Part shown: positions 17,308 through 33,145 of the stretch, piece by piece
Layout of the letters: the number at the start of each line of letters is the position of its first letter
Position numbering within the stretch: the first letter of the stretch is position 1
Virus record (IMG/VR): IMGVR_UViG_3300044556_000087
Location: 1 to 49,949 of that record
Source of the DNA: a virus
Reading direction: 5' to 3' (one strand)
Length of the DNA stretch: 49,949 nt
Program-made: the position numbers and the translations under genes
Notes under the pieces: generated by a model
What the model saw: only the letters and a program-made list of their open reading frames with translations
The model's database searches: none
What the model was told of the DNA's origin: nothing

Positions 17308-17714
17308 TTGATTATGAGGACCTCATCGGTATCCCGTTTGTTAATCATGGCAGAGACCGCCGGACTGGATTTGACTGCTACGGTCTGGTCATGGAGGTAT
17401 ATCGCCGATTCGGTATCGAGCTTCCGGAATTTACGGCAGACTGGGACGACGAGGATAAGATAAACAGTATCGTACAGCGGGAAGCGGGCTCATCCTCATG
17501 GCAAAGGGTAGAACAGCCGCTCCCGGTGCCATGCCTGGTCGCGCTCCGGATGGGGACACCGCCCGGCATTGTGAATCATACCGGGGTGTACCTTGGTAAT
17601 GGTAAATTTATCCATACACGGGCGAAAATCGGTGCCTGCATCAGCCGGATAGACTCTCCGGCATGGCGGGGAGTTATTGAAGGATTTTATGTATACAGGG
17701 GGCAGCAGACATGA
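17304..17714 (+). CDS. Tail tip NlpC/P60 peptidase (lambda gpK-like, lacking the MPN half)
   Basis: GFDCYGLVMEVYRRFGIELP ... NHTGVYLGNGKFIHT gives the Cys/His/His pattern of NlpC/P60. Overlaps neighbours by 4 nt on both sides. Confidence 0.8.
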   Translation: MIDYEDLIGIPFVNHGRDRRTGFDCYGLVMEVYRRFGIELPEFTADWDDEDKINSIVQREAGSSSWQRVEQPLPVPCLVALRMGTPPGIVNHTGVYLGNGKFIHTRAKIGACISRIDSPAWRGVIEGFYVYRGQQT

Positions 17715-20700
17715 TTACGGTTGTTTTCGTCAAAAACCCGTTCGAACCGCAGAAGAACCGGGAGGTCCATACGCTGCCCTATACCAAAGGCAAGAACGTT
17801 GATTACTATGTACAGCAGTGCACGAAAGAGCTCACGCTGCCGGACATGGTCATTTCCCGGAACAGCTATACCATAAACGGTGCCCAGCTGGTAAAGGATA
17901 ATGACTTTATCGTATTTGCTCCGGTCGTCGGTAAAGGTCATGGGAAGAACCCGCTGCTCATCATAGCAACGGTGGCCCTGTCCGTCGTGGCCATGGGTGT
18001 TGGTGGATGGGTGGCATCCGGTTTTACGTCATACGGGGCTGCGGGTTTAGCTGGCGCTTCAGGCTTTGCTGCTATTGGCGGGTATCTGGCCGCAGCGGCA
18101 GTCATGTTTGTCGGCGGTACGCTCATCCAGCGGGCTTTCGGAACTGCTAATGTGAGCGGGTATAAGAGTAGTTCGGAAAATCCGACCTACTCGTGGTCCG
18201 GTATCCAGACGACAACAGGGCAGGATAATCCGATTCCGATTACATACGGGACGGTCCGCAGCGGTGGCCAGACCATCGGCAAATACATCACGTCTGACTC
18301 GGATAAACAATATCTTAACTGGCTCGTTTCTGCCGGATACGGCCCGCTAAAGATTTACGATGTACAGCTTAATGATAATCCGATTGAAAACTATAAGGAC
18401 GTTAAGCTGGATACCCGGAGCGGGACGAATGATCAGGACATTATCCCGACATTTAACGATACTATCAGCACGAAGACATTAGGGTATGAGCTGCTGGACG
18501 ATGCCTGGCGTACGGACCTGGTAACCGGCACAGCGACTCAGGGGCTCATCATCTATGTAGAATGCTCGAACGGCTTGTATTATGCCAATGATAAAGGCGG
18601 GCTCGATGAGACATTTGTTGAAATCAAGGCCCAATATGCGCCGGAAGGCTCGTCTGACTGGAAAGATTTCCTGAGTCCGCATCATTATCTCGAGTCCAAG
18701 ACGAAATACCTCACACTCAATGACGATGCAGCCCCTATCGGCGAATACGATATCAAATTTAAGAAAAGCGGGGATAGCTGCACTATCACTGTTGGCCAAT
18801 ACAGCACGACCTATGTGACGAAACCGGAACGGACGATTGCTGTCGGTCCGTTTAACTGGGTCACGACGCATGAATTTAGCGCATGGGAAGCCATATTTCA
18901 GGGAAAAGCTTACGTTCGGGCGACGAAGGAATCAGCAGACAACGGCATGATTAAGGGCAATAAGTCATCTGCTATCCGTCGTCAGTATCGGGTGGATAAC
19001 CTGCCTGCAGGTCAGTATCAGGTCCGGATTAAAGTCACATCCCGGGGCTATCCTGTGACTTCGACACGTGCGGCAACACGTATCTGGTGGACCGGGGTTA
19101 GCGGCATCGTGTACGACGATTTTACCTACCCGAACATTGCCCTTATCGGCATCCGGGCCATGGCTACGGACCAGCTGTCCGGCTCTCCGACCCTGAAATT
19201 CATGAAACAGCGGTCTACGGTCTACGTCTGGAACCCGGCAACGAGCGCCTACGAAGAACACGATGCTACGAACCCAGCCTGGGCTGCTTATGATATGGTG
19301 CACCGGGCTAATAAAATAACGGATGCCCGAAACGGGAATACGGTCTATGTACACAGCGGAGCCGATGCCTCGCTGATGCTCTATAATCAATTTGCTGAAT
19401 GGGCGGCATATTGTGACCAGTTTAAACTTAAAATCAATATCGAAATCAACACGTCTGGAGAAATGCTGGACGTCGTGAACCGCTATATAGCTCCTGTCGG
19501 TCGTGGCATCGTCGAACTTTTTGGCACTAAATATGGCTGCTGTTGGGATGGCCCGAAAGAGGCGGTCCAGATGTTCGGCATGGGTAATATCATCACCGGG
19601 ACATTTTCTGAGACATTCCTGCAGACCTCGGACCGGGCGAATGCCGTCGAACTGACGTTTACCAACGCCCAGAAAGACTATGAACGGGATACGGTCAAGG
19701 TCTTCGGGCCTACGTTTGACACGGATGAATACGATACAACAAGCCAGCTCACCTATGACGGTATCACAGGCTATGAGCAGGCATACAGAGAGGCTAAATT
19801 CCAGCTGTACTGCAATGCCTACATGGTCCGTACGGTGTCGTTCCAGGCGGCGATTGACGCCATCGCCTGCACGGTCGGCGACGTCATCTACGTTGCTCAC
19901 GATGTGCCGATGTGGCAGACCAGCGGCAGGATAGCCGCCGTCGATGCGAATACCGTGACGGTCAATGCCGTGATGCGGTCCTATGACAGCTCGAAAACGT
20001 ATACCTTCGCGTATCGGTCCTCAGCGAATGATACCCGGTACGAAATCGGATGCTCCTCGATTACTGTCGGCGACTCGACGACAACAGTCGTCTTATCAAG
20101 TGTACCGGAATCGGCACCGGCTGTCGGGGATATCTTCGATATTGCAGAGGTGAGCAAAGGGACGAAAAAATTCGTAGTCCGCTCCATCAGCCGTACCGAG
20201 GACATGGTCCGGGAAATCGAGGCTATCGAATATAACGAGAACGTGTTTAACGAAAATTACACTATCCCGCCGATGAACTACAGCGACGCCGAGGACGATA
20301 ACGACGTCCGGAACGTCACGAATCTGACCGGACGTCAGATTAACTGGAAGGACAGCTCAGGCCAGCGGCATGCGCGACTGTATCTCTCCTGGTCTTACCC
20401 GGAACGGATGAGCTATCAGCGATTCACGATTTTCCTATCCAGCGACAATTCGTCCTACGTTACCGCTGGGTCATCCATCAACATGTATTTCGAGACTGAG
20501 GTCAACGTTGAGACGACATATCTCGTAAAGGTCGTCACGGTCAACCATCTGCGCAATTCGACCGGCACGACGATTAAAGTCGAGCCGGGCACCGATGAAC
20601 CGCCGGCAGACGTCAAGGCACTCAACGTCGAAAAGATGAGCTCCGGCCTGCGCCGGTACTGGTGGGAATTTACCTATCCAGACCCGGACGACATCGCAGG

Positions 20701-21643
20701 GTTCCGTATGAAGTATACCCAGGGGACAACGCTCAACTGGGGAAACGGCATCCCTGTACAGGATGGGCTCATCACCAGTCAGCCATACGAAACGCAGACG
20801 GTCCGGCAGGGTGTCCATGCAGTCATGATTAAGGCTGTCGACAATGCGGGAAACGAGAGCATCAATTTCGCGTACTGCCTGCTGGATATGGGCGACCTGC
20901 TCGAACAAAACGTTCTGTATTACAAAGACTATGCCGCCAATAACTGGGCAGAAACAAAGCATAACGGCTACCTTGAAACAGACGGCTATCTGTATCCGGT
21001 CAACAATACGGATATGTGGGAATCGGCTGCCAGCTACCGCTGGGATAATGCCGATGCCGCTGCCTGGTCGAACAACTGGCAGCCGTACACCGTGACTGCC
21101 GAGTTTACCGCTCCCGTTAGCGGTCAGATGTGGTTAAAATACGATATCGACGGTCCGGCCATCGTCTACTATCGCGAGGTGCTGGATACGGCAGCATGGG
21201 ACAGCGACGATGCGCCAGCGTGGATCAGCGTCAATACGGCTGCCTGGGAACTTGACGAAATGAAACTCTGGAAACAGTATTCTGACCGCATCAACATTGC
21301 AGCCGGCGATGAAATCCAGATCCAGATAGTCGCCTTGAACAACAACAACGAAAAAACGGTCGTCAAAGGGCTGTCGGTATACATCGACGTCCCAGACCGG
21401 AACGAACATTTCGAGGATCTGACGATTCCGGCGACAGGGATTGAACTGCCGATAGTGACACCGCACTATCACACGACAGCGGTGCACATCGACTCGGTAC
21501 AGGGCGGCAGCTCGACGACCATCCTGCAGCCGGTCATCGTGAGCCGGAATCCATGCGTGGTGAAACTCATCAACCAGAACGGAGAGGCCGTAGCCGGCAC
21601 GGTCGATATCAGCTGGCAGGGATACGTAGAGGAGGTTTTATAA
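17711..21643 (+). CDS. Fused tail assembly protein I-like / host specificity protein J-like central tip protein
   Basis: Residues 1-75 resemble the gpI beta-grasp part, followed by a Gly/Ala-rich hydrophobic stretch and PIPITYGTVRSGGQ. The later YPNIALIGIRAMATDQLSG...NPAWAAYDMVHR...AEWAAYCDQ parallels lambda J (YPNTALVGVQVDSEQFG...NMAWCLWDMLTHPRYG...IGQYCDQ). Confidence 0.85.
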   Translation: MITVVFVKNPFEPQKNREVHTLPYTKGKNVDYYVQQCTKELTLPDMVISRNSYTINGAQLVKDNDFIVFAPVVGKGHGKNPLLIIATVALSVVAMGVGGWVASGFTSYGAAGLAGASGFAAIGGYLAAAAVMFVGGTLIQRAFGTANVSGYKSSSENPTYSWSGIQTTTGQDNPIPITYGTVRSGGQTIGKYITSDSDKQYLNWLVSAGYGPLKIYDVQLNDNPIENYKDVKLDTRSGTNDQDIIPTFNDTISTKTLGYELLDDAWRTDLVTGTATQGLIIYVECSNGLYYANDKGGLDETFVEIKAQYAPEGSSDWKDFLSPHHYLESKTKYLTLNDDAAPIGEYDIKFKKSGDSCTITVGQYSTTYVTKPERTIAVGPFNWVTTHEFSAWEAIFQGKAYVRATKESADNGMIKGNKSSAIRRQYRVDNLPAGQYQVRIKVTSRGYPVTSTRAATRIWWTGVSGIVYDDFTYPNIALIGIRAMATDQLSGSPTLKFMKQRSTVYVWNPATSAYEEHDATNPAWAAYDMVHRANKITDARNGNTVYVHSGADASLMLYNQFAEWAAYCDQFKLKINIEINTSGEMLDVVNRYIAPVGRGIVELFGTKYGCCWDGPKEAVQMFGMGNIITGTFSETFLQTSDRANAVELTFTNAQKDYERDTVKVFGPTFDTDEYDTTSQLTYDGITGYEQAYREAKFQLYCNAYMVRTVSFQAAIDAIACTVGDVIYVAHDVPMWQTSGRIAAVDANTVTVNAVMRSYDSSKTYTFAYRSSANDTRYEIGCSSITVGDSTTTVVLSSVPESAPAVGDIFDIAEVSKGTKKFVVRSISRTEDMVREIEAIEYNENVFNENYTIPPMNYSDAEDDNDVRNVTNLTGRQINWKDSSGQRHARLYLSWSYPERMSYQRFTIFLSSDNSSYVTAGSSINMYFETEVNVETTYLVKVVTVNHLRNSTGTTIKVEPGTDEPPADVKALNVEKMSSGLRRYWWEFTYPDPDDIAGFRMKYTQGTTLNWGNGIPVQDGLITSQPYETQTVRQGVHAVMIKAVDNAGNESINFAYCLLDMGDLLEQNVLYYKDYAANNWAETKHNGYLETDGYLYPVNNTDMWESAASYRWDNADAAAWSNNWQPYTVTAEFTAPVSGQMWLKYDIDGPAIVYYREVLDTAAWDSDDAPAWISVNTAAWELDEMKLWKQYSDRINIAAGDEIQIQIVALNNNNEKTVVKGLSVYIDVPDRNEHFEDLTIPATGIELPIVTPHYHTTAVHIDSVQGGSSTTILQPVIVSRNPCVVKLINQNGEAVAGTVDISWQGYVEEVL

Positions 21644-22573
21644 ATGGCAGATGTAGAGAAATTGCTGGATGTCGCGCCATACCTGAAATACCCGTCGGAT
21701 GAAAGCCCAACGACTGAACAGCAGTATCAGGATTTTGTTAAAAACGTACATACGACATTAGCGAATACGCTGAACACGGTGAAACTGTGGCAACCGTCTA
21801 CGGCATATGCTGCGGACGAAATCATCTCCAGCCCGAATATGCAGCCGAACACGGTGGCCAAGGTCACGACAGCAGGTACCAGCAACAATATCGAGCCGAC
21901 CTGGACCGCTGCCGGAACGACTGTCGAAGACAACGGCTGCACGTATCTGATGGTCAGGAAATGCCAGGAATCGGCAACAGCCGACGAGGCCAAGGCCGGA
22001 ACGGATACGATGAAAATCGTCACACCGGCAGCACTGGCCGCGGTGCTGGCAGACTTTAAAAAACAAGTCATCAACGCGGCTCATCCGGTCGGAGAAATCT
22101 GGGAAACGACGACCGGCGACGACCCGAATAAACTCTGGTCATGGCAGAAATGGGTCAAGATGGACGCCGGCCGTGTGCTGGTAAGTGCCGGTACATACAC
22201 CGAAAACGGGACGTCGTACACGTACACACTCGGGGCAACCGGTGGCGAGGCGAAGCACACAATCACCATCAGTGAAATAGCATCACACAATCACGGTGCC
22301 AGCATCAGTACAGCTAATCTGACAGGTACCTGGTCAGCTAGTGGCTCACAGGGCCTTTCCAACAGCCCGAGCAATAGTTTTAGTGGCATCATCAGCGGTT
22401 CCGACTGGTCCGGTGATACTCACAGTGGCAGTAATGGTAATAACACACCAAAGACAATCACGATTAACGCCAGCCATAGCCACTCCGTTACGATAAACAC
22501 GACCGGCAACGGCTCAGCACACGAAAACCGCATGCCTTACACTGTAGTCAACCGTTGGAAGAGGACAGCCTAG
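21644..22573 (+). CDS. Tail fibre A (tail-collar-type receptor-binding protein), expressed copy
   Basis: 309 aa. LWQPSTAYAADEIISSP...EPTWTAAGTTV, DEAKAGTDTMKIVTPAAL, HPVGEIWETT...GGEAKHTITISEIASHNHG, and C-terminal GSAHENRMPYTVVNRWKRTA (collar-domain-like HxH / HxN-PY motifs). Confidence 0.8.
   Translation: MADVEKLLDVAPYLKYPSDESPTTEQQYQDFVKNVHTTLANTLNTVKLWQPSTAYAADEIISSPNMQPNTVAKVTTAGTSNNIEPTWTAAGTTVEDNGCTYLMVRKCQESATADEAKAGTDTMKIVTPAALAAVLADFKKQVINAAHPVGEIWETTTGDDPNKLWSWQKWVKMDAGRVLVSAGTYTENGTSYTYTLGATGGEAKHTITISEIASHNHGASISTANLTGTWSASGSQGLSNSPSNSFSGIISGSDWSGDTHSGSNGNNTPKTITINASHSHSVTINTTGNGSAHENRMPYTVVNRWKRTA
22268..22278 (+). repeat. Candidate crossover site A-left (ATCAGTGAAAT) inside fibre A
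   Basis: 11-bp core encoding (T)ISE(I). Its exact reverse complement is at 22871-22881, in the same codon register of the inverted cassette. Confidence 0.6.
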
Positions 22574-22881
22574 GCCGTCCGTTTCCAGCGATTAATAACT
22601 TGATAGGGCTGCCGGTTTTCATGCGCAGAACCAGAGCCCGTAGCGGAAATGCTGATATTGTGGTTATGCGAAGCTTTAATATACAACGCTCTGGTAGCAT
22701 CATTGTAATTTGATTGCCCTGTATGCACGCCATAGCGGCCGGCTGATACCGAGATTACGCCACTAGTCGATACAGAGGATGCGGCAAGTATCCCCATATT
22801 ACTATCAGTCGAGGTGATTGACCCGCTAAGGGATGTCGTTGAGCACGAAACATTGTGATCGTGAGTAGCCATTTCACTGAT
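22570..22881 (-). other. Silent inverted alternative C-terminal cassette for fibre A (about 100 aa)
   Basis: Minus-strand frame reads TISEMATHDHNVSCS...ASHNHNISISATGSGSAHENRQPYQVINRWKRTA*. It has the same start and end motifs as the expressed tip with a different middle. No RBS or promoter of its own; the ATG of track ORF 22570..22917 lies in the antisense of the next gene's RBS. Confidence 0.75.
22871..22881 (-). repeat. Candidate crossover site A-right (inverted copy of ATCAGTGAAAT)
   Basis: atttcactgat on the + strand is the reverse complement of 22268-22278. Flanking bases keep partial similarity (..GC....CAC.ATCAC..TG). Confidence 0.6.
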
Positions 22882-22902
22882 AGTTCGAAAGGAGAGATGT
22901 AT

Positions 22903-23352
22903 ATGAAGGTTTTTCAAATTTTAAAAGGACAGGTCCTCGTCATTGACGGGGACAAGCAATACTCGGATACCGTCGATAATTTCAAGACCGATGCTGGCCT
23001 TTCCAGCACTCCTGATATGGTCATCTACGACGACAATCAGGAGTGCTGTGTCGTCGATGGCAATTTTCTCGCCTACCCGAACGCACTCTATCAGTCGTAT
23101 ATCGACCGTATCGCTGAGCTCATCGCGGCCAAGGCTAAGCGCGAGTATGTCGCACCAGCCGAGCCAACCGCCGAAGAAAAGCTGGCCGCTGCGAAAGCAC
23201 AGCTCAAAGCCGATTATGAGGCCGCTGTGGAGTCGCTGACGTCTGATATGGCCACGGCACTGCTCCGGGGCGATACCGATGCCCAGAAGTCTATCCAGTC
23301 CGATTTTGCAGATTTACAGGATGCATACAAAGAAGAAAGCGAGGCACTCTAA
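22903..23352 (+). CDS. Hypothetical protein, possible fibre assembly/accessory protein
   Basis: ATG 22903 follows aaaggagag. 149 aa with a helical Ala/Glu/Lys-rich C-terminus. Lies between the two fibre loci. The functional guess is positional only. Confidence 0.55.
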   Translation: MKVFQILKGQVLVIDGDKQYSDTVDNFKTDAGLSSTPDMVIYDDNQECCVVDGNFLAYPNALYQSYIDRIAELIAAKAKREYVAPAEPTAEEKLAAAKAQLKADYEAAVESLTSDMATALLRGDTDAQKSIQSDFADLQDAYKEESEAL

Positions 23353-23486
23353 TGAAATTCAAACTCCCGAAACGCTGCGAATACTGCGCTCATAAATTAG
23401 TCGATGGTAAATGCGTCAATCCTGACTGCATCGCCTACACGAAACCGGAAACGACGACCACAGAAACGGCAGGTGACAGCAAATGA
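23352..23486 (+). CDS. Small zinc-ribbon-like hypothetical protein (44 aa)
   Basis: MKFKLPKRCEYCAHKLVDGKCVNPDCIAYTK... Start overlaps the previous stop (TAATG) and the stop overlaps the fibre B start (ATGA). Below the ORF-track size cutoff. Confidence 0.4.
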   Translation: MKFKLPKRCEYCAHKLVDGKCVNPDCIAYTKPETTTTETAGDSK

Positions 23487-24352
23487 GCATCCCGGCAGTA
23501 AAGAGTTTTACGAATTACAACAAATATAAAACCGAAACAGGGTACACCAAGCAGGGCGAACTGCAGCAGTACCTGCAGAACCAGAACGACGTACTAAGCG
23601 CCACAGCACAGGTCCTGCTCTGGCAGCCGGAAACATTGTACACCGCAGGCCAGCTGGTCTCCAGTCCATCCATGACGGCAGGGACGCTGGCACGGGTCAC
23701 AACGGCCGGGAAGACCAGTGACACGGAGCCAACCTGGACCGCATCAGGGACAACGGTAACGGACGGTACCGTCACATGGACGGTCACGAAAGCCGTCACG
23801 GACGCCGACAAAGCCACGAGCGACGAGGCTAAAGCGGGGACCAGTGACAAAGTCATCACGGCATCAACACTCAAAGCCGCCATGGATGCCGCTATCTCGT
23901 CAGCCATCAAGACGGCCACAGCAGCCATCGAGAAGCAGGTCAAGTTGGACGCACATCCTGTCGGCTCGTACTATTTTTCCGATGACAGCACGAGCCCTGC
24001 CGACCTTTTCGGAGGCACGTGGGAAGCACTGCCAGCAGGTTACACGCTCATCGCGCAGGGCTCTGGCACCGATGATTTCGGCTCGTTTAGCTACACGGCT
24101 GGACAGAAATACGGGGAACGACTCCACAAACTCACCGTCGATGAATTGGCATCACATTCGCACAGCTATACAACTATTCCTAAGACATGGGACCAAGTAA
24201 ATTACAGTAAAGATGATTTAGCTAACTGGAACGAATCGGCACGTCAGGCATCGGCAGGCGTTACATACTGGACTGATTCAACAGGCGGCGACAAAGCTCA
24301 TAATAATGTTCCGCCGGTTAAAGCCGTATATGCATGGCTTCGTATAGCCTGA
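23483..24352 (+). CDS. Tail fibre B (paralogue of fibre A), expressed copy with tip V1
   Basis: 289 aa. LLWQPETLYTAGQLVSSP...EPTWTASGTTV, SDEAKAGTSDKVITASTL, HPVGSYYFSDD...ERLHKLTVDELASHSHS, and C-terminus AHNNVPPVKAVYAWLRIA. Confidence 0.8.
   Translation: MSIPAVKSFTNYNKYKTETGYTKQGELQQYLQNQNDVLSATAQVLLWQPETLYTAGQLVSSPSMTAGTLARVTTAGKTSDTEPTWTASGTTVTDGTVTWTVTKAVTDADKATSDEAKAGTSDKVITASTLKAAMDAAISSAIKTATAAIEKQVKLDAHPVGSYYFSDDSTSPADLFGGTWEALPAGYTLIAQGSGTDDFGSFSYTAGQKYGERLHKLTVDELASHSHSYTTIPKTWDQVNYSKDDLANWNESARQASAGVTYWTDSTGGDKAHNNVPPVKAVYAWLRIA
24135..24147 (+). repeat. Candidate crossover site B-S1 (CCGTCGATGAATT) in expressed fibre B
   Basis: Encodes (T)VDEL. The same core in the same codon register heads every downstream cassette. 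Confidence 0.6.
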
Positions 24353-24355
24353 GCG

Positions 24356-24368
24356 CCGTCGAGGAATT
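24356..24368 (+). repeat. Candidate crossover site B-S2 (CCGTCGAGGAATT)
   Basis: One mismatch to S1. Starts 4 nt after the fibre B stop codon. Confidence 0.5.
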
Positions 24369-24573
24369 ACCGAACCATCATCATGCTATATATGCCGGAT
24401 ACGGCTACGATACAAGTGGCACTGCAGATGCTTACTGTTATCAGCATTGGGCTAATAACGACCAAAGGTGGCATGAAGAAGATACTATCAGCACGTCTTA
24501 TATCGGAGGTGGGACTGCCCATGCGAATCTGTCACCCAGTGTTGCAGTGTATGGCTGGAAACGTACCGCCTAG
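24356..24573 (+). other. Silent direct-orientation cassette V2 for fibre B
   Basis: Reads AVEELPNHHHAIYAGYGYDTSG...GGGTAHANLSPSVAVYGWKRTA*. The ATG of track ORF 24334..24573 lies inside the fibre B 3' end and has no RBS. Confidence 0.7.
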
Positions 24574-24577
24574 CGGC

Positions 24578-24589
24578 CCGTCGATGAAT
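24578..24589 (+). repeat. Candidate crossover site B-S3 (CCGTCGATGAAT)
   Basis: 12/12 match to S1. Starts 5 nt after the stop of cassette V2. Confidence 0.6.
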
Positions 24590-24795
24590 CAGCGCCACAC
24601 AACCACGGCCTTAGATTAAAAGGCGGTACATCTACAGATGCTAAGGACTGCTTTTTATGGGATTGGACTACTGATTGCAAGGAATCGACTCAGCCTAACG
24701 ACTCGTGGGATTTTATAGAACCATCAGGAGGCGGTCAGGCACATAATAACATCCAACCATCGTTAGCGGTCTACGCTTGGCGGCGCCAAGCATAA
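24578..24795 (+). other. Silent direct-orientation cassette V3 for fibre B (no start codon at all)
   Basis: Same frame as V2, open directly after its stop: RPVDESAPHNHGLRLKGGTSTDAKDCFLWDWTTDCKESTQPNDSWDFIEPSGGGQAHNNIQPSLAVYAWRRQA* (stop 24793-24795). Absent from the ORF track because it has no Met. Confidence 0.7.
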
Positions 24796-25009
24796 ACTGC
24801 CAAAACGGGCTGAACGTTGTTATGAGCCACGTCATTGCCAATGTACTCGGTAAACACGTTGCCGCCTTTGCCATCATCAGAATTGTCTGTATCCCATGCA
24901 CAGTTTAATACGTTAAGAATTTTTTCACCAGATTGTTTGCAAGTGATGCACACCGGCGAGCCGTCTTTCCAGATGATTTTTGCCCTAACTTTAGCTAACT
25001 CATCGACGG
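24771..25009 (-). other. Silent inverted cassette V4' for fibre B
   Basis: Minus strand reads SVDELAKVRAKIIWKDGSPVCITCKQSGEK...GNDVAHNNVQPVLAVYAWRRQA*. It overlaps V3 tail-to-tail by 25 nt. Confidence 0.7.
24997..25009 (-). repeat. Candidate crossover site B-S4 (inverted; CCGTCGATGAGTT on the minus strand)
   Basis: aactcatcgacgg on the + strand. The 10-bp core CCGTCGATGA is identical to S1 and S3 but inverted. Confidence 0.6.
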
Positions 25010-25051
25010 AGAACAACTCGGACAGCATCGGGCACGTTCGGACGGCAGACA

Positions 25052-25080
25052 CCGCTTTTGTCCGCTTTTGTCCGTTTTTA
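25052..25080. repeat. Tandem 10-mers ccgcttttgt x2 plus a degenerate third copy
   Basis: accgcttttgtccgcttttgtccgttttta, lying between site S4 and the 3' end of the recombinase gene. Confidence 0.8.
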
Positions 25081-25177
25081 TCAGCATCAAGACCTAGACA
25101 AATACCGCGTTAAGCACACAGCCACAGTAGGCGGTGTGCGTGATTACACGGCCGTTGCGTCGGCTCTTAGTATCATA

Positions 25178-26146
25178 CTACACACGGTCAATAGCCTTTT
25201 TCAGGTCAGCAAGCGTCTTGTGCGTGTATACTCCCTTTGTGATGCCTGGCCGAGCATGACCGAGAATCATGCGGATGGTCGTCTCATTGACTTCGGCACG
25301 GTCGAGCAGAGTTGCCAGCGTATGGCGTGCTTCATGGGGCGTGTGCTTCATGCTGACGGCTTTCATGGCTCTATCCCAGAGACGGCGGAAGCTGTCATAA
25401 GTCGCACAAGGACAAATCTGGCCGCTTGCTTTCCGCTCGATGAGGTACGGTAAGATTTTGTGATGGATGGGGATTTTGCGGATGCCTGCCGCTGTCTTCG
25501 ATTTCTTGATGTCGATGTATCGCTGTCGCGGCTTAATGTCAGCAGGAGTCAGCGCAAGATACTCACCTACGCGCATACCCGTATAGATGAGTATGAGTAC
25601 ATCAATGACGCCGTCGACGTCGGTCGAGCGCCAGAGCTTGCCTATCTGCCTAGCCGTAAAAGGCTTTTTCTTAAACATGATAACGTGCTTAGGCAATTCC
25701 ACAAATGGGCTTAGGTCATGGTCGACGATGCCGTTTTTGATTGCCCACTTGTACATCTGCGAGAGCAGAACACGGCACTTTTTACGGGTGCAGTATCCGG
25801 CGGGGACAGCATCGACAGCGGCCTGCAAATCTGGATATGTGATTGACGCAAAAGGCATGGCATGGAGCTGCTCTAGATGCCGATAGCTGATGCTATAGGC
25901 CGTCTGTGACGATTTGCCTATCATTTCAAAGTTCCTTGACCTCCATGCGTAGTAGACGGCAGTAAAGGTCAATTCTCGGGAGGGCGTGCAGTGATTCAAC
26001 TCAACCAAAAACTCGAACGCTTCTTGGTAGCTCTGGAAATATCCCAGGGCTTTTTGTTTGCCATCGATTGTCTTTTTAACGACAAACGGGCGCCGCCGAT
26101 TGCCTTGTAGTCGGTACACGGTACCATATCCATTTGGTAATTTCAT
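25178..26146 (-). CDS. Tyrosine recombinase (second integrase-family gene); candidate fibre-cassette invertase
   Basis: C-terminal ARHTLATLLDRAEVNETTIRMILGHARPGITKGVYTH (R..H..GH..Y catalytic pattern) and N-terminal KLPNGYGTVYRLQGNRRRPFVVKK arm-type domain. Likely start is ATG 26146 after ggaaagga; track ORF extends to 26191. Confidence 0.85.
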   Translation of the reverse strand: MKLPNGYGTVYRLQGNRRRPFVVKKTIDGKQKALGYFQSYQEAFEFLVELNHCTPSRELTFTAVYYAWRSRNFEMIGKSSQTAYSISYRHLEQLHAMPFASITYPDLQAAVDAVPAGYCTRKKCRVLLSQMYKWAIKNGIVDHDLSPFVELPKHVIMFKKKPFTARQIGKLWRSTDVDGVIDVLILIYTGMRVGEYLALTPADIKPRQRYIDIKKSKTAAGIRKIPIHHKILPYLIERKASGQICPCATYDSFRRLWDRAMKAVSMKHTPHEARHTLATLLDRAEVNETTIRMILGHARPGITKGVYTHKTLADLKKAIDRV

Positions 26147-26179
26147 GTCAATCAAATCCTTTCCGTTTGGAGGTGTAAG

Positions 26180-26467
26180 ATGATTGAGCACATTATATCA
26201 ACATTAATCATTTCGCTCCTGTCAGCTGCAGGGGCTTATTTTTTTGGAGTCTACAAAGCAACGGCAACGGTCAAAAACGGGGTCCAGGCAATCCTCCGGT
26301 ACGATATGCTGACCGCATACAGTAAATTCCGGACGTCTGGTTGCACCATCGAAGAAAAACAATCCTTTGAAAACATGTACAACTGCTACCACAAGCTAGG
26401 CAAGAACGGCGTCATGACTGCCTTCTATGAAAAAGTGATGGCTATGGAGGTAAATGATGAAAAATAA
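26180..26467 (+). CDS. Membrane-anchored lysis-module protein (holin-like or holin accessory)
   Basis: RBS ggaggtgtaag. One N-terminal TM segment (IISTLIISLLSAAGAYFFGVY). First gene of the lysis block. Function is inferred. Confidence 0.45.
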   Translation: MIEHIISTLIISLLSAAGAYFFGVYKATATVKNGVQAILRYDMLTAYSKFRTSGCTIEEKQSFENMYNCYHKLGKNGVMTAFYEKVMAMEVNDEK

Positions 26468-26819
26468 AATCATCAAGCTCGGGGAGTGGGGAAAACGCCA
26501 CTGGCTCCAGCTCATCGTTATCATGGGCGTCATCATGATGACGTTCCTGGTCCTCGTCCTCATCAGCTGGCTCATCGGCTACTGGGCAAACGCTCTCCTG
26601 GGCACGAAATTTGAGCTCATGAGTTGCTGGAGCGGGGTCGCGGCTGTGGCTAGTGGCATCGCCACCATCGTCGGCCTAGGCAAGGCCTGCTGGACCAAAT
26701 ACGGATATGACAGCCGCTATAACTCCGCTGTAGGTACTATGCCTAAAGTGGCAGAAACAGCCGCCAAAGCGGCAAATATCATCGAAAAAGCGGCAACCAA
26801 AATAGAACAGAAAGGGTGA
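26454..26819 (+). CDS. Putative holin (two or three TM segments)
   Basis: WLQLIVIMGVIMMTFLVLVLISWLIGYWA and SCWSGVAAVASGIATIVGL hydrophobic helices with a charged C-terminus. Directly upstream of the lysozyme-like gene. Confidence 0.5.
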   Translation: MMKNKIIKLGEWGKRHWLQLIVIMGVIMMTFLVLVLISWLIGYWANALLGTKFELMSCWSGVAAVASGIATIVGLGKACWTKYGYDSRYNSAVGTMPKVAETAAKAANIIEKAATKIEQKG

Positions 26820-27454
26820 TGTATATGTTAGGAGATTTAAGCGCACGTTATGAGAGCAACGGCGACCCGGGCTGCATCTCAGACGGCTACGGCGACCCGG
26901 GCGGCAAATCGTACGGCACGTACCAGTTTAGCTCCAACGCAGGCAGTCTGGATGCCTTTTGCAACTGGCTGCAGTACAACTATCCGCAGTACGCGGAGCA
27001 GCTCAATACCTATCCGATGTGCAGCACCAGCTTTGATGAGGCATGGCGCAACATTGCGGCATCCGACAGCGACGGTTTTGCTCAGGCTCAGCACGAATAT
27101 GTTAAGGCGACCTACTATGACCCCGCTGTCGAGATACTGGCTAACAACTATTGGCGCATCGAAAACCACAATGCCGTCATGCAGGACGTTGTTTGGAGCC
27201 GGGCTGTGCAGTACGGTGTGGGCAACATCCTCGACATGTGGACCGAGGCCGTACACTCCATGTACAACGTGACCAGTGGCGGCTATGACGGCTATCCCAA
27301 TCTGAGCTACATCGACGCCAATGAGTACGACTATGATTTTATAGTCGCAATCTATACCGTCTGCAAAAGCGAGGAATGGAACAGCTCGGCACTTCGAGAT
27401 AGTTTAAATAACCGTTTCGACAGCGAAATGCATGATGCCCTTGCTCGTCTATAG
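26816..27454 (+). CDS. Putative endolysin (lysozyme/transglycosylase-like fold)
   Basis: LSARYESNGDPGCIS...GKSYGTYQFSS has a Glu-Ser-x-Gly context like lysozyme-like hydrolases. Lies between holin and spanin-like genes. Family not firmly recognised. Alternative starts at 26819 and 26825. Confidence 0.5.
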   Translation: MMYMLGDLSARYESNGDPGCISDGYGDPGGKSYGTYQFSSNAGSLDAFCNWLQYNYPQYAEQLNTYPMCSTSFDEAWRNIAASDSDGFAQAQHEYVKATYYDPAVEILANNYWRIENHNAVMQDVVWSRAVQYGVGNILDMWTEAVHSMYNVTSGGYDGYPNLSYIDANEYDYDFIVAIYTVCKSEEWNSSALRDSLNNRFDSEMHDALARL

Positions 27455-27457
27455 GAG

Positions 27458-27856
27458 GTGGTCCTTTTGTCCTATCTGCCGCATATAAAAGAGGAGGTCG
27501 ATACGATTGCCAAAAATCCTAAAATTATCGCTATCTGCATTGCTCTTTGCATCCTTGTTGCTGCTACCGGCGGCTGGCTACTGTGCCGGCACTACGGCAA
27601 CATCGAACGAACCAACGGTCACGATGTTACTCGGACAGTACGAGACACTCAAGAGCTCAATCGAGACGCTCAAGAGCAACTCAATCAAGCGCGAGAAGCT
27701 AATCAAAGAGCAGCAACAGCAAATCAAAACGCTCAAAGAGCAGCTGACAGCATCTCAGACTCAAATCGCGAGCTCTCAGACCTCAATCAATCAGACACAG
27801 CAGCAATTGACGCAGCAGAGCAGGTCTTTAGAGACGTTGACGCAGCAAATCAATGA
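27458..27856 (+). CDS. i-spanin-like protein (N-terminal TM plus coiled coil); overlaps 27507..27947 in another frame
   Basis: GGAGG at 27454-27458 with GTG 27458 or TTG 27467. TM segment IIAICIALCILVAATGGWLLC, then Gln/Asn/Ala-rich helical sequence. Confidence 0.4.
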   Translation: MVLLSYLPHIKEEVDTIAKNPKIIAICIALCILVAATGGWLLCRHYGNIERTNGHDVTRTVRDTQELNRDAQEQLNQAREANQRAATANQNAQRAADSISDSNRELSDLNQSDTAAIDAAEQVFRDVDAANQ

Positions 27857-27947
27857 GCAGAGCCATAAATACATGGTCTCCAAACGCCAGCGCGATACCT
27901 GGGCAGTCGCCGCAGGGATGCTGCTGGTCGGTTTAGCCGTAAAATAA
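27507..27947 (+). CDS. Spanin-like envelope protein with N-terminal signal/anchor, coiled coil and C-terminal TM
   Basis: TTG 27507 lies 9 nt after aaagaggagg. MPKILKLSLSALLFASLLLLPAAGYCAG signal-like N-terminus, heptad-rich LKSSIETLKSNSIKREKLIKEQQQQIKTLKEQL..., and C-terminal WAVAAGMLLVGLAVK. Ends at the terminator. Confidence 0.55.
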   Translation: MPKILKLSLSALLFASLLLLPAAGYCAGTTATSNEPTVTMLLGQYETLKSSIETLKSNSIKREKLIKEQQQQIKTLKEQLTASQTQIASSQTSINQTQQQLTQQSRSLETLTQQINEQSHKYMVSKRQRDTWAVAAGMLLVGLAVK

Positions 27948-27953
27948 AAAAAA

Positions 27954-28000
27954 TCCCGTCGGACCAGCGCAATGCTGACTCGACGGGACTATTTTTTTTT
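27954..28000. terminator. Strong intrinsic terminator closing the late/lysis operon (A-tract upstream, T-tract downstream)
   Basis: tcccgtcg(27954-27961)...cgacggga(27981-27988) with an inner cagc/gctg stem, flanked by aaaataaaaaaaa and ctattttttttt. Confidence 0.8.
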
Positions 28001-28012
28001 GCCTATTTTATA

Positions 28013-28024
28013 TTATACGTATAA
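28013..28024. promoter_or_regulatory. Operator-like perfect 12-bp palindrome TTATACGTATAA (copy 1)
   Basis: Part of a 15-bp direct repeat atattatacgtataa (28010-28024 and 28033-28047). Confidence 0.5.
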
Positions 28025-28029
28025 AACTA

Positions 28030-28058
28030 TTGATATTATACGTATAATATACTATAAT
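28030..28058 (+). promoter_or_regulatory. Near-consensus sigma-70-type promoter TTGATA-N17-TATAAT for the moron block
   Basis: ttgata (28030-28035), a 17-nt spacer, tataat (28053-28058). It lies 87 nt upstream of the 28145 ATG and just after the late terminator. Confidence 0.6.
28036..28047. promoter_or_regulatory. Operator-like perfect 12-bp palindrome TTATACGTATAA (copy 2, inside the promoter spacer)
   Basis: Identical to copy 1. Lies between the -35 and -10 elements of the 28030-28058 promoter. Confidence 0.5.
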
Positions 28059-28144
28059 ATAATCAAGGAAAGGGAAAACAAGACCTTCCGAAATAATTCT
28101 TAATAGCGCATCCGAAAGGAAAGCCGCCAAAGGAGGAAAACATT

Positions 28145-28501
28145 ATGGCAACGTACTGGGATATCAAAGGTTTACCGATGGTTAACGACGTGGACGACGC
28201 GAAAGTCGAAGAAATCAAGCAGTCGATTATGACAAACGGCTGGAAAGGCTGCCCAATCCTTTATACGGATTTAGGTCTTGTAACTGGTAGCCATCGCCTC
28301 GCAGCGCTCCAGAACATCGAAGAAAACGAAGATGACATCGACGTACTCGACGAAGAAGTAGCAGAAGACGTATCCGACATCATCAACGACTACTGCGAAA
28401 AGAATGATATGTACTGGGACGAAATCGATTTTTCTAGCCTGCGTGACATCTTCGCTGGCACCTGGGTTGAAGAATATAAAGACGAAATAGAAGAATGGTA
28501 A
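28145..28501 (+). CDS. Small, very acidic ParB/sulfiredoxin-fold (ParB N-terminal-like) protein
   Basis: RBS aaaggaggaaaacatt. VDDAKVEEIKQSIMTNGWKGCPILYTDLGLVTGSHRLAALQNI matches the ParBc pattern (...P.l....y.l.dGhHRl.A). The C-terminal half is Asp/Glu-rich. Confidence 0.6.
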   Translation: MATYWDIKGLPMVNDVDDAKVEEIKQSIMTNGWKGCPILYTDLGLVTGSHRLAALQNIEENEDDIDVLDEEVAEDVSDIINDYCEKNDMYWDEIDFSSLRDIFAGTWVEEYKDEIEEW

Positions 28502-28508
28502 AAGCAAG

Positions 28509-28535
28509 GCGGTCAGAAATGACCGCTCTTTTATT
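28509..28535 (+). terminator. Intrinsic terminator/attenuator between moron genes 1 and 2
   Basis: gcggtca-gaaa-tgaccgc followed by tcttttatt. Confidence 0.65.
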
Positions 28536-28550
28536 AAAGGAGGAATTGAC

Positions 28551-28904
28551 ATGAAGAGAACTATTTACATGAGCGAACCGCTTGAACGACTCGCAGAAGA
28601 AACACGCGGAGATAGCCGCCGGACCAGCGGCTTTTCTCGACGCCTGGGCGAAATCGTCGAACGGTATCAGATTATGCTTGACCTCGACACCGCGACACTG
28701 CCGGTGCTGACCAACACGGAAACGGCTATCATGGGGGAAGTCATCTGCGGGTCCGTGATAGATCGCCGGAAAATCCGCGGCCTACATCTCGACGTGCTGG
28801 ACGCGGAACTCGGCAGCCCGAAAGAAAAACAAGCATTGTCTGGTAAAGTAGCCGCTCTCACGGCAGGACAGCGGCTGACACTTGTAGAAAAGCTGGGGCA
28901 ATAG
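28551..28904 (+). CDS. Hypothetical protein (possible ribbon-helix-helix N-terminus)
   Basis: RBS aaaggagg. 117 aa. N-terminal KRTIYMSEPLERLAEE is beta-strand then helix, as in RHH proteins. Otherwise unrecognised. Confidence 0.6.
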   Translation: MKRTIYMSEPLERLAEETRGDSRRTSGFSRRLGEIVERYQIMLDLDTATLPVLTNTETAIMGEVICGSVIDRRKIRGLHLDVLDAELGSPKEKQALSGKVAALTAGQRLTLVEKLGQ

Positions 28905-28905
28905 T

Positions 28906-29580
28906 ATGGATGATATCAAGATCGGCGACCAGTTTGGCTACTGGACCGTTATCGGGCTGGATGATGGTCATCACCCCTATAGGGCTAAGTGTAAATGTGT
29001 TTGTGGGACAATCCGCTGGGTACTCCGGTCCAGACTACGGACCGGGAAAACGGCATCCTGCGGATGCATGGCGCATCCTGATGCTTATCGAGGGCTAAAG
29101 CCAGGGGATAGAATAGGTTATTGGACCATTATCAAACGAGACGGACGGCGTTTTTATTGCCGTTGTATATGCGGTACTGAAAAATGGGTAGCCTCAACCA
29201 GCTTATTATACGGTAAATCCCTATCATGCGGATGCAAAAGGCTGGAAGCAAGGCCAGGAGAAGCAGAGAGCGCCCTACAGCAAGGACGTGACATTTCTGC
29301 CGCTCTGCAGACGGAAAAACTGCAGGCAAAATATGCCGGATTCGGTCGAAAACGAAATAAAAACAGCTCTACCGGAGTGGTGGGAGTATCAAAATTAAAG
29401 GGCCGATATCGCGCTTACATCATGGTTAATCGTAAACAGATTAGTCTAGGTATGTATGATACTCTTAAGGATGCCACGGCTGCAAGGAAAGCCGCTGAGC
29501 AAAAGTATTTTGCAGGCAAACAGAAAAAAGCTGATGAGATAAAGAACCAATTCAGGAGGGATGACCATGATGACAGATGA
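28906..29580 (+). CDS. DNA-binding protein with two Cys-rich N-terminal repeats and a C-terminal AP2 domain
   Basis: Duplicated G(D)xxGYWTVIG...C.C.CGT..WV....L..GK..SCGC units, then GVVGVSKLKGRYRAYIMVNRKQISLGMYDTLKDATAARKAAEQKYF (AP2/ERF-type fold pattern). Confidence 0.7.
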   Translation: MDDIKIGDQFGYWTVIGLDDGHHPYRAKCKCVCGTIRWVLRSRLRTGKTASCGCMAHPDAYRGLKPGDRIGYWTIIKRDGRRFYCRCICGTEKWVASTSLLYGKSLSCGCKRLEARPGEAESALQQGRDISAALQTEKLQAKYAGFGRKRNKNSSTGVVGVSKLKGRYRAYIMVNRKQISLGMYDTLKDATAARKAAEQKYFAGKQKKADEIKNQFRRDDHDDR

Positions 29581-29716
29581 AGAGCTAGAGGCTAAAAGGA
29601 TTGATTTGATGCTGCAGCTATTAGCGAGCCGGCGGAAAACGGCCGCGCTGCGGGAGAAGATACGTGCCGCACATGAAAGGCATGTACGAGAAGGCCTATG
29701 CAGACCTGACACATAA
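29567..29716 (+). CDS. Small hypothetical protein (49 aa)
   Basis: ATG 29567 lies 8 nt after aggagg (29553-29558). MMTDEELEAKRIDLMLQLLASRRKTAALREKIRAAHERHVREGLCRPDT. Its stop lies in the first copy of the 22-bp tandem repeat. Confidence 0.4.
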   Translation: MMTDEELEAKRIDLMLQLLASRRKTAALREKIRAAHERHVREGLCRPDT

Positions 29717-29738
29717 CCTATGCAGACCTGACACATAA
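29695..29738. repeat. Perfect 22-bp tandem duplication cctatgcagacctgacacataa x2
   Basis: 29695-29716 is identical to 29717-29738. Confidence 0.95.
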
Positions 29739-29763
29739 GAAGAAGACGAGCAGTAAAGCGAGA

Positions 29764-29803
29764 GAGCCGATGAGATAATCACCGGCTCCCTTATTTTTTT
29801 TTT
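29764..29803 (+). terminator. Probable intrinsic terminator (short stem, long T tract)
   Basis: gagccg ... cggctc (6-bp stem, 13-nt loop) followed by ccttattttttttttt. Confidence 0.45.
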
Positions 29804-29890
29804 AAATTTTTGGTACTCAAAGCACTCTCTTTTGTCCATATATAAGTAGAGGGGTAATTCGCCCTCACTGATCAGAAAGGAGAGGATAGT

Positions 29891-30124: not shown

Positions 30125-30163
30125 AACAATCGTTCTATAACAATTTCATTTTGCGAGGTTCAC

Positions 30164-30463: not shown

Positions 30464-31570
30464 TTACAGGATGCTGTCCATCACGGAGAGAGCTTCTTTT
30501 TCGCGCTTTTCCGTGATGCTGTCATAGATATTAGCCGTCGTGTACACCGAGGCATGACCGAGGCGCTTCGAAACGTAGTCCAAGGCAATGCCGTTCTCGA
30601 TTAACATGGTAGCGTGAGTATGCCGGAACGAGTGGAAGGACAGCCCGCCGAAGTGCTCCCGGCACCAGAGGTTGAAGTACCGGGTCTTGTTGCTGGTGAG
30701 TGGTTTCCCGTTCTCCTCGGTGCACACCGCGTCCGATCGGCGGTAGTACCGTCCATACTCAAACTGGTTCCGCTCCTGCCAGAGCTTCTGGGCTTTCAGC
30801 TCGGCTGCCAATTTCTGGCCAAAGGTGATGACCCGCAGTGATGATGCAGTCTTCGGCGACTCGATACGGGCATCCCCAGTCTTATCGTATTTATTGCCTA
30901 CGACCTCCAGCGTATGCGCTTTTAGATCTACATTCGCCCAGCGCAGGGCCAGGCATTCCCCGAGCCGCATCCCGGTGCAGTAGGAGAGCATGCACGGCAT
31001 GTGGAGCTGATTCCCTCGCGGAAATCGTTCGAAAATCTGCTGAATCTGGTCAGCCGTGAAGACCTTAATCATCTGGAACTGCGGGGCATACCGGGGCACC
31101 CGTACGTTATCCATGGGGTTGATGGTAAGGTACCTGCGATTGGCCACACACCAACGGAACGAGGACCGCAGGACCGCTGCAATAGATTTCAGGGTACCTC
31201 GTGCATACGTATTCCGCAAACCCGTGATGTAGTCCTGCAGCATCGGAGTCGTGATGTCCTTCAGCCGGACCTTGGCAAAAGCAGGAGTCAGGTGATTATC
31301 GACGATGTTTTCATAGGCATCTACCGTGTTCGGTTTCAGGTTGATGCGGACTTCCTTTTCCATCCATTCCTTCAAGAAATCCGGATAGAGCATACTGGAC
31401 GGTTCGAAAAATTTCCCGGTCCGGTCTATCTCCTGCATGGCAGCACGATAAGCCCGGGCAGCCTCAGCACGGCTAAAACCGCCAAAGTGCTCGTGCTTAT
31501 GGTACCTGCCCATAGCATCCGTTTCGTTTATGGTATAGTACCATCTATCCTTGATTTGTCGTAAAAACAT
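30464..31570 (-). CDS. int: Phage integrase (tyrosine recombinase), lysogeny module
   Basis: HSFRHTHATMLIENGIALDYVSKRLGHASVYTTANIYDS catalytic region and N-terminal KDRWYYTINETD...GGFSRAEAARAY arm-binding-type domain. Likely start is ATG 31570 after aggaggctgatttac; track ORF extends to 31618. Confidence 0.9.
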   Translation of the reverse strand: MFLRQIKDRWYYTINETDAMGRYHKHEHFGGFSRAEAARAYRAAMQEIDRTGKFFEPSSMLYPDFLKEWMEKEVRINLKPNTVDAYENIVDNHLTPAFAKVRLKDITTPMLQDYITGLRNTYARGTLKSIAAVLRSSFRWCVANRRYLTINPMDNVRVPRYAPQFQMIKVFTADQIQQIFERFPRGNQLHMPCMLSYCTGMRLGECLALRWANVDLKAHTLEVVGNKYDKTGDARIESPKTASSLRVITFGQKLAAELKAQKLWQERNQFEYGRYYRRSDAVCTEENGKPLTSNKTRYFNLWCREHFGGLSFHSFRHTHATMLIENGIALDYVSKRLGHASVYTTANIYDSITEKREKEALSVMDSIL

Positions 31571-31685
31571 GTAAATCAGCCTCCTAATCATGGCGGATAG
31601 CGGGCTGATGTGGTACAATAAAACTGTAGATCAGCCCTAAATATCTACACATCGCCGGTCCGGTACTGGTAATACCATCCGGCAC

Positions 31686-32660: not shown

Positions 32661-33038
32661 CTATTTGTTCCTTTCCGTTTTCAAAAACCGGATGTAGTTG
32701 GCCGCCTGCTGCATCTCCTCCGGGGACAGGTCCGCCGCTGCCGAGAAGAGTACCTTGAGCTCTGGATCCGTGCGCAGCTTTTCCGCCAGTTCCGCTGTGT
32801 CGGGATCATCGTAATAGCCGTTCTGGTCTTCAGTCTGTTCCCATCCCATGAGGGCACCCGGTGTCGTGTGCAGTGCCTGCGCAATCTTTTCTATCCGGTC
32901 AGATGGTATATTTCCAATGACCCCGGATTCATATCGTTGGATTGTCTGCCGACTGACCCCTACGATTTTAGCGACATCATCCAGTGTCATTTTCTGCTGT
33001 AATCTTGCTCTTTTAATATTTTCATTTAAAGTTGCCAT
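32661..33038 (-). CDS. CI-like XRE-family repressor
   Basis: LNENIKRARLQQKMTLDDVAKIVGVSRQTIQRYESG HTH. Divergent from the Cro-like gene. Likely start is ATG 33038 after gaagggg; track ORF extends to 33074. Confidence 0.85.
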   Translation of the reverse strand: MATLNENIKRARLQQKMTLDDVAKIVGVSRQTIQRYESGVIGNIPSDRIEKIAQALHTTPGALMGWEQTEDQNGYYDDPDTAELAEKLRTDPELKVLFSAAADLSPEEMQQAANYIRFLKTERNK

Positions 33039-33145
33039 AGCTAAGCCCCTTCTTGCTATATTGTATTTAATCATCTATAAGAGCATTATAGCACGAAAAT
33101 TACATATTATGCAACAAAAATATTATAAATTAGGTAAAAAATTAC

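Follow-up and report, generated by a model that had tools for sequence, protein, structure and literature searches.

Why does a temperate phage encode two tyrosine recombinases, one of which lies among its tail fiber genes? This question is raised by the stretch of 49,949 nucleotides analyzed here (the window; IMG/VR record IMGVR_UViG_3300044556_000087, positions 1-49,949), in which a 322-residue tyrosine recombinase, hereafter rec, adjoins two arrays of alternative fiber ends, and a second recombinase, hereafter int2, is found at 30464..31570. An earlier note on this DNA had proposed that rec inverts the fiber cassettes, and our comparison with related loci supported this proposal through the linkage of rec to the arrays and through flips at the repeats in five lineages. 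From these sequence comparisons, we consider it highly probable that rec acts as a site-specific invertase dedicated to a double tail-fiber shufflon. The system is a shufflon in the sense of Rci and Rin. All coordinates refer to the window unless another locus is named, and L-numbers label the related loci. The recombinase and the two arrays comprised the following features.

25178..26146, minus strand: rec, 322 residues (aa), tyrosine recombinase proposed as the shufflon invertase (Pfam, homolog alignment, AlphaFold2 (AF2) model and Foldseek)
21644..22573, plus strand: fiber gene F1, 309 aa, with a Gp10_C C-terminal domain; constant to about 22267, with expressed cassette 1A at 22279..22573
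22265..22294, plus strand: in-gene crossover site of F1, core ATCAGTGAAAT at 22268-22278, encoding TISEIASHNH
22570..22884, minus strand: silent cassette 1B, tail-to-tail with F1, core at 22871-22881, encoding TISEMATHDH...NRWKRTA
23483..24352, plus strand: fiber gene F2, 289 aa, Gp10_C; in-gene core CCGTCGATGAA at 24135-24145, expressed cassette 2A at 24146..24352
24356..24573, plus strand: silent cassette 2B, core at 24356-24366, immediately after the F2 stop codon
24578..24795, plus strand: silent cassette 2C, lacking a start codon of its own, core at 24578-24588
24771..25009, minus strand: silent cassette 2D, inverted, carrying the terminal (rec-proximal) core at 24999-25009(-)

F1 has two and F2 has four alternative C-termini, each of which begins at a short core repeat. 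The F1 site at 22265-22294 reads ACCATCAGTGAAATAGC..., and its inverted copy at 22855-22884 heads cassette 1B; the 11-nucleotide (nt) F1 core occurs exactly twice in the window, as an inverted pair at 22268(+) and 22871(-). The F2-type core CCGTCGAKGAR occurs four times in the 49.9-kb window, where 0.14 copies are expected by chance, and all four copies are in the F2 array (24135+, 24356+, 24578+ and 24999-). The inverted in-frame repeats described in the earlier note are therefore real and non-random. Fusion at the core was in frame for every cassette, giving F2 proteins of 289, 289, 289 and 296 aa (2A, 2B, 2C and 2D) and F1 proteins of 309 and 311 aa (1A and 1B). In every chimera, the Gp10_C match began at profile position 2-5 and ended at 138-139 (of 139), and the scores were similar to those of the native proteins; the 311-aa 1B fusion covered positions 2-139. 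Since each chimera completes a full Gp10_C match, the crossover lies in the middle of this domain, at the motif T-x-[DS]-E-[LMI]-[AP]-x-H, and the cassettes supply its distal part. The 115-aa and 93-aa minus-strand open reading frames (ORFs) were considered as independent genes and rejected, as they lack the N-terminal half of Gp10_C and align with its distal part only. Where cassettes meet tail-to-tail (22555-22590 and 24771-24795), they overlap at their stop codons in a near-palindrome, from which either strand encodes the shared C-terminal peptide (NRWKRTA or AWRRQA).

In the proposed mechanism, rec would pair inverted sites and flip the DNA between them, and each flip would place a different cassette in frame behind the invariable N-terminal portion of the fiber. 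The repertoire of the window would amount to two F1 forms times four F2 forms, or eight fiber combinations. A single enzyme, rec, would serve both arrays, and integration and excision would be left to the unrelated int2.

To compare the arrays, relatives of rec were collected from IMG/VR, GTDB genomes, metagenomes and exact-protein look-ups, which yielded 52 loci at an identity of at least 50%. In five lineages, we found sets of loci with 99.8-100% identical flanks that differed only within the arrays, with breakpoints in the cores, and these differences covered both F1 and F2. The rec protein was identical in three of the five (L009/L028, L059/L061 and Mitsuokella). L004 and L005, whose flanks are 99.97% identical, differ by one moved and one inverted block, and this difference is accounted for by two inversions between CCACCGA[G/A/T]GAAAT sites; the exchange occurred within the 7-mer CCACCGA, because the eighth base, which is variable, stays with the right-hand part. 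L009 and L028 are related by a clean 964-bp inversion from the terminal site to the in-gene site, which switches the expressed end of F2 from ...LTTDE-LAPHMH... to ...LTTDE-MPSHHH...; L029, a third assembly of the same phage, stops exactly at ...CCACCGATGA. The Acidaminococcus intestini prophage, found in at least eight places with identical rec, showed three inversion-related configurations, with an F2 of 219, 233 or 186 aa, and the same discrete states were recovered from independent assemblies of different samples. In the lineage closest to the window (88%), the arrays of L059 and L061 differ by a natural flip. In the Mitsuokella prophage, the F2 array was rearranged and a 585-bp F1 segment was inverted between two 16-nt CTGCTGATGAAATGCC sites, giving an F1 of 400 or 391 aa. 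Both kinds of array present in the window have thus been observed in flipped form in its relatives. Additionally, the ends of six contigs fall in or at a core, and in 13 of the 52 rec loci the sequence stops within 200 nt of the rec stop codon; we take these breaks as a sign of mixed orientations in the sampled populations.

We aligned 50 F2-type sites from 14 lineages and obtained a consensus of roughly 16 nt, CC[G/A][T/C]CGA[T/G]GA[A/G]NT[G/A][C/G]C, seven positions of which were preset by the search pattern that collected the sites. The left flank is not conserved and is either non-coding DNA, part of a fiber coding sequence or the stop codon of the cassette before it; the F2-type sites are asymmetric. 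Each phage uses one variant of the F2 7-mer: the window, L007 and L014 have CCGTCGA, the three sites of L032 all have CCATCGA, and the other phages have CCACCGA. The variable pair (GT, AC or AT) changes the encoded residue (V, I or T), yet it is uniform within each phage, which points to selection at the DNA level for an identical overlap region rather than to a constraint on the protein. The first 7 nt of the site are thus probably the strand-exchange (overlap) region. The F1 pairs always carry another 7-mer (CTATCAG, CTGCTGA or CTGTTGA) than the F2 sites of the same phage, as in the window, where CTATCAG in F1 is found beside CCGTCGA in F2. Because these 7-mers differ, the two arrays should be kept from recombining with each other.

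The rec gene itself appears intact. The start MKLPNGYG at 26146 is common to all rec homologs (322-324 aa); a longer GTG-started ORF reaching 26191 has no backing from the homologs. The protein matched Pfam Phage_integrase (PF00589) with 57.3 bits against a curated cut-off of 27.1, and R192, K217, H271-x-x-R274, H297 and Y307 were invariant across 30 family members (56-100% identical), which bears out the full catalytic pattern that had been read from the sequence. As also claimed, the window holds exactly two recombinase genes, rec and int2, whose products are 25% identical to each other; no serine recombinase or Resolvase-type gene was found among the window ORFs, and rec itself had no Resolvase match.

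The position of rec was likewise as described: it is antisense to the fiber and lysis genes and lies between the cassette at 24771..25009(-) and the first lysis ORF at 26180. The suggestion that this antisense placement is unusual was weakened, as the family keeps this arrangement and in the published Rin shufflon, too, the recombinase gene borders the array (PMC6109161). The rec start (26146) and the start of the first lysis ORF (26180) are divergent with only 33 nt between them, so the promoter of each gene must be located within the other one or well upstream. When 21000-31800 was scanned for consensus promoters and terminators, matches stayed at background level and offered no explanation for lysis-gene transcription past rec.

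The AF2 model of rec, with a predicted local distance difference test (pLDDT) score of 82, comprises three β-strands and a helix (aa 9-51; pLDDT about 80), core-binding helices (aa 61-137) and a catalytic domain (aa 165-322). The best Foldseek matches to the model were Tn1549 Int and full-length lambda Int, the latter over 350 columns. rec is thus modeled with a three-domain, lambda-Int-like layout consisting of an arm-binding N-domain, a core-binding domain and a catalytic domain. Pfam arm-domain hidden Markov models did not detect the N-domain at E <= 1, so that its assignment comes from the structure model alone. The suggested Rci-like character of rec held for its role and failed for its ancestry. 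R64 Rci (from NC_005014) and rec share 22% identity over 255 aa (E = 6e-5), which is a relation at the superfamily level only, and their domain layouts differ. In particular, the first aligned pair is Rci residue 42 with rec residue 84, leaving the N-domain of rec without an Rci counterpart; rec ends 15 aa past Tyr307, and the C-terminus of Rci, a protein of 384 aa, is about 100 aa longer. By this comparison, rec is not related to Rci beyond the superfamily. An NCBIfam scan of rec at E <= 0.1 gave no Tsr-type match (Tsr0667 being the model for Bacteroides tyrosine invertases) and returned only weak Xer, integron-integrase and GmtY models, all far below their cut-offs. The nearest proteins outside the rec family were 32-35% identical, share the MKLPNGYG N-terminus and come from Butyrivibrio phage Arawn, Fusobacterium and R. 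gnavus phages. Because these relatives sit in ordinary integrase positions, rec looks like an integrase-lineage protein that was recruited as an invertase. In Arawn (L001), where the rec homolog at 9905-11050 occupies the integrase position, a putative reverse transcriptase adjoins the tail genes, which may be an alternative for fiber diversification of the diversity-generating retroelement type.

Between the terminal F2 site and the rec stop codon, 169 nt apart in the window, we aligned 16 loci and found shared boxes and repeats. Two features were identified in the window.

25110..25120, minus strand: box TGTGTGCTTAA, non-coding, with a GCTT core invariant in the 16 aligned loci
25052..25082, minus strand: three tandem direct repeats in a 10-11 bp phase, ACAAAAGCGG twice and GATAAAAACGG in the rec direction, beside the terminal site

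A TTGTCAAGG box is also usually present in this block. The repeats read RATRAAATGG in most loci, and their position is kept in most of the 16, with degenerate versions in L007, L051 and L011. When 146 kb of 11 loci was scanned, 25 of the 39 matches to the repeat pattern fell within these 200 nt; in the window, the decamer ACAAAAGCGG was not enriched elsewhere and did not occur close to the F1 array. The interval that separates the decamer repeats from the terminal core, at 25018-25047, also contains degenerate core-like repeats (GTCCGAAC or GTCCGAG) at a roughly 11-nt spacing, which are confined to the sub-lineage of the window (the equivalents in L014 and L059). Speculatively, the three phased repeats are candidate arm-type or accessory sites for the N-domain of rec, although F1 arrays flip without such repeats nearby. 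A more detailed model, which we put forward tentatively and consider rather doubtful, is that rec is an arm-domain integrase of the lambda-Int type turned dedicated invertase, in which the phased repeats would act as arm sites and create one armed site that pairs with the naked in-gene sites; every configuration would then be reachable through inversions anchored at the end of the array (prefix reversal), with deletion between direct sites disfavored. If true, it would provide a route to inversion-only selectivity distinct from those of Rci, Rin and Gin. The L004/L005, L009/L028 and A. intestini (configurations A, B and C) changes are expressible as inversions involving the terminal site, but they do not require it.

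The lysogeny modules and prophage ends were also compared. The proposed integration enzyme of the window is the following.

30464..31570, minus strand: int2, the canonical integrase of the lysogeny module, outside the shufflon (Phage_int_SAM_3 and Phage_integrase)

Fiber cassettes were present in every locus whose sequence continues downstream of rec for 585 nt or more, and the rec proteins adjoining a cassette array in the relatives were 56-94% identical. The order was constant: after the array came a non-coding spacer of about 140-170 nt, then the oppositely oriented rec gene and finally the lysis genes. The enzyme beside the CI-like gene varies while rec stays, and three tyrosine types and one large serine type were observed there. 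L006 carries a large serine integrase at 3340-4887 (Resolvase, Recombinase and Zn_ribbon_recom) for lysogeny and keeps the tyrosine recombinase rec at its fiber array; L010, L032 and L132 carry Arm-DNA-bind_4 tyrosine integrases beside the CI-like gene, and the window has int2. This difference between lineages gives comparative support to the view, also held in the earlier note, that int2 is the lysogeny integrase. In addition, rec has decayed where the array was lost. A 45%-identical homolog (L039 10001-10888, the same as L012 and L038) lacks the C-terminal catalytic region and remains in the same place, between the lysis genes and cassette-less tail fibers of another type; in L015, rec is frameshifted and the array is shrunken.

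Among the alternatives, the one that survives best, although we consider it very improbable, is that rec inverts the fibers and additionally acts as the integrase in prophages without another one. Its integrase-type architecture and the arm-like repeats would suit such a dual role, and the far ends of the Megasphaera hexanoica, Mitsuokella and A. intestini DSM 21505 prophages lie outside the visible sequence; a scan with the L010 integrase for the far prophage ends matched only itself. However, every lineage with a readable lysogeny module has an integrase of its own. The A. intestini uncultivated viral genome (UViG), reached by a CI-like profile scan, ends after the CI/ImmA/exonuclease genes without an integrase, but L138, which is 87.6% identical in DNA to this lysogeny module, runs into an Arm-DNA-bind_4 tyrosine integrase immediately behind the exonuclease gene, at the point at which the IMG/VR record ends. 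L138 thus suggests, without proving it, that an integrase lies just past the end of the A. intestini record.

Slightly less probable still is that rec is a second integrase or an excisionase-type enzyme for integration, for example at an alternative attachment (att) site, and that something else inverts the cassettes. The lambda-Int-like model and the canonical integrase positions of the closest relatives outside the family speak for this, as does the closeness of rec to the prophage end, which is only about 2-5.5 kb away in three prophages: bacterial genes start only about 2.5 kb (Mitsuokella) and 5.5 kb (A. intestini) upstream of rec. However, the junctions lie past the lysis genes and not beside rec. 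In the M. hexanoica chromosome, the junction between prophage and bacterium adjoins a TpsB-like outer-membrane gene and is separated from rec by about 1.8 kb with four lysis genes; the observation named in the earlier note as refuting its proposal, att junctions next to rec, was thus not made. We found no att-like duplication next to rec, and tRNA scans of five loci found none. The separate, variable integrases beside the CI-like gene in five lineages, where rec stays with the array, and the decay of rec where cassettes were lost also argue against this role.

A third alternative, that the rearrangements are RecA-type recombination or assembly accidents between similar cassette starts with rec as a bystander, can draw on the overlap of the repeats with the conserved protein motif T-x-D/S-E-[LMI]-[AP]-x-H, which would make DNA similarity expected without any site function, but it is highly unlikely, as the identical stretches are only 7-16 nt and too short for efficient homologous recombination, breakpoints at the same core recur in five lineages and both arrays, the 7-mer co-varies per phage whatever residue is encoded, independent assemblies from different samples share discrete configurations, and rec is strictly array-linked.

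Several observations weigh against rec as the dedicated invertase of this phage. The window is a single assembled configuration, and the flips were seen in relatives and not in this exact genome. Three of the four F2 sites in the window are direct, and a simple tyrosine recombinase could also delete between them. A separate integrase is not proven in the M. hexanoica, Mitsuokella and A. intestini DSM 21505 prophages and was seen only in a related lineage. Finally, the nearest relatives of rec outside its family, at 32-35% identity, mark its lineage as integrase-like. An exact-protein look-up of the window rec found no other contig, a megablast search of window positions 21000-27000 against INPHARED gave no match, and IMG/VR, GTDB genomes and metagenomes contained no relative more than 89% identical over full-length rec. 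We infer that rec would catalyze the array inversions, that flipping would take place in this particular genome as well, and that the switch would alter receptor specificity.

The wider setting is that of a complete temperate phage. Bases 1-127 are 100% identical to 49823-49949, and because of these identical 127-bp ends, the window is a circularly assembled, complete genome of ~49.8 kb. On the plus strand, the late genes run from a J-like tail tip protein (17711..21643) through the two fiber genes to the lysis module; on the minus strand, the lysogeny block that follows the late genes contains int2 and a CI-like repressor (32661..33074). The remaining features near the arrays were as follows.

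22903..23352, plus strand: 149-aa ORF between F1 and F2, found in most relatives at 60-94% identity
23352..23486, plus strand: 44-aa CxxC...CxxC mini-ORF before F2, kept in relatives
26180..27856, plus strand: lysis-module ORFs, divergent from rec, encoding a putative wall hydrolase of 212 aa and three membrane proteins, two of them small and one of 132 aa

A family search with the two small ORFs between the fibers (22903..23486) gave no match; they may be fiber assembly factors. The L059 homolog of the 212-aa lysis ORF matched T6SS_VgrG3-like_C. Between the lysis module and int2, at 28145..29580, the window carries a ParB/methylase-N-like ORF (28145..28501), an unknown ORF (28551..28904) and an HNH endonuclease (28906..29580); this cargo is absent in the M. 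hexanoica prophage, whose end directly follows the lysis genes.

The prophages bearing rec reside in Negativicutes, namely M. hexanoica, A. intestini, A. fermentans, A. provencensis, Mitsuokella jalaludinii and Allisonella. In the A. intestini and Mitsuokella prophages (L051-L058 and L066-L067), the same module of fibers, cassettes and rec is located behind myovirus-type baseplate genes (Baseplate_J, Mu gp48 and sheath initiator), whereas the module of the window is downstream of a siphovirus-type J-like tip protein; hence, the module moves from one tail type to another. The rec family is widespread in gut and rumen Negativicutes prophages (Acidaminococcus, Megasphaera, Mitsuokella and Allisonella), and public assemblies hold several of its states. 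It offers a system defined by its sequence, with one 322-aa enzyme and 16-nt sites, in which two fibers would be switched at once. It could be used to study how an integrase-type enzyme becomes inversion-only, how phages of diderm Firmicutes hedge their host range and why their assemblies break at a single reproducible point. As annotation pipelines label rec an integrase, prophage borders or lifestyle may be misinferred.

Inversion of tail fiber genes by the serine invertases Gin, Cin and Min is classical. The Gin, Cin, Pin and Min systems (of Mu, P1, e14 and p15B) resemble the present one in that inversion swaps fiber C-termini to alter host range, with Min being multi-segmented; they differ in using serine invertases with an enhancer and Fis, and the window has no resolvase-type gene. 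The R64/IncI1 Rci system shares with the window a tyrosine recombinase beside an array of invertible segments that swaps the C-terminus of an adhesin (PilV), and only inversions have been seen there. The R64 sfx sites are asymmetric, with a short conserved core, one conserved arm and another arm that is not conserved, and the same pattern was found here. In contrast to the phage fibers of the window, the R64 system is plasmid-borne and targets a pilus adhesin. Lambda Int and the Tn916/Tn1549 Int proteins gave the best structural matches to the rec model and share its predicted three-domain layout, and the three phased direct repeats beside the core site recall P'1-P'3 of lambda. Unlike a lambda-type integrase, rec is not located at a prophage junction, co-exists with another integrase and has its sites inside fiber genes, and the reaction observed at them in nature is inversion.

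Phage shufflons with a tyrosine recombinase have been reported only a few times, in Actinobacteria phages (Rin; PMC6109161) and, probably, in BV01-like Bacteroidota phages (a 2026 preprint, PMC13596623). The Rin shufflon of bifidophages was described as the first case of a tyrosine invertase carried by a phage (PMC6109161) and was later found in Eggerthella prophages (PMC8778435), and tail fiber genes are among the targets of programmed inversions in a broad survey (PMC9881135). Rin is the closest parallel in its layout: it is phage-encoded, a constant N-terminal receptor-binding protein (RBP) gene is followed by alternative C-terminal cassettes between short repeats (11 bp in Rin), the array is bordered at its far end by the tyrosine recombinase gene, the prophage has a lambda-like integrase of its own at another place, and inversions were seen between prophage and virion sequences (PMC6109161). 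By its description, Rin is a XerD-like, two-domain protein and has no arm-type N-domain (PMC6109161), whereas rec is modeled with one; the Rin site is TTCCCTAACCC, its target is a TP901-1-like RBP and not a Gp10_C fiber, and its hosts are Actinobacteria and not Negativicutes. Unlike the Rin system, the window has two switchable fiber genes, and rec is set apart from Rin by the description of the latter. The BV01-like phages of Phocaeicola vulgatus have a tail-fiber shufflon with all configurations seen in the studied populations, and share with the window a multi-cassette array over the distal end of a fiber gene, a flanking recombinase and directional motifs of 10 bp; they differ in host phylum, fiber type, motif (TGGGAGAACT) and in having a single array (PMC13596623). 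We found no description of the rec shufflon family in Negativicutes phages in the literature, and this family of gut phages appears to be undescribed. The system is distinguished from the known ones by an integrase-type recombinase with three modeled domains, two arrays, probably insulated, that one enzyme would serve, a crossover in the middle of the Gp10_C domain and a conserved block of phased repeats.

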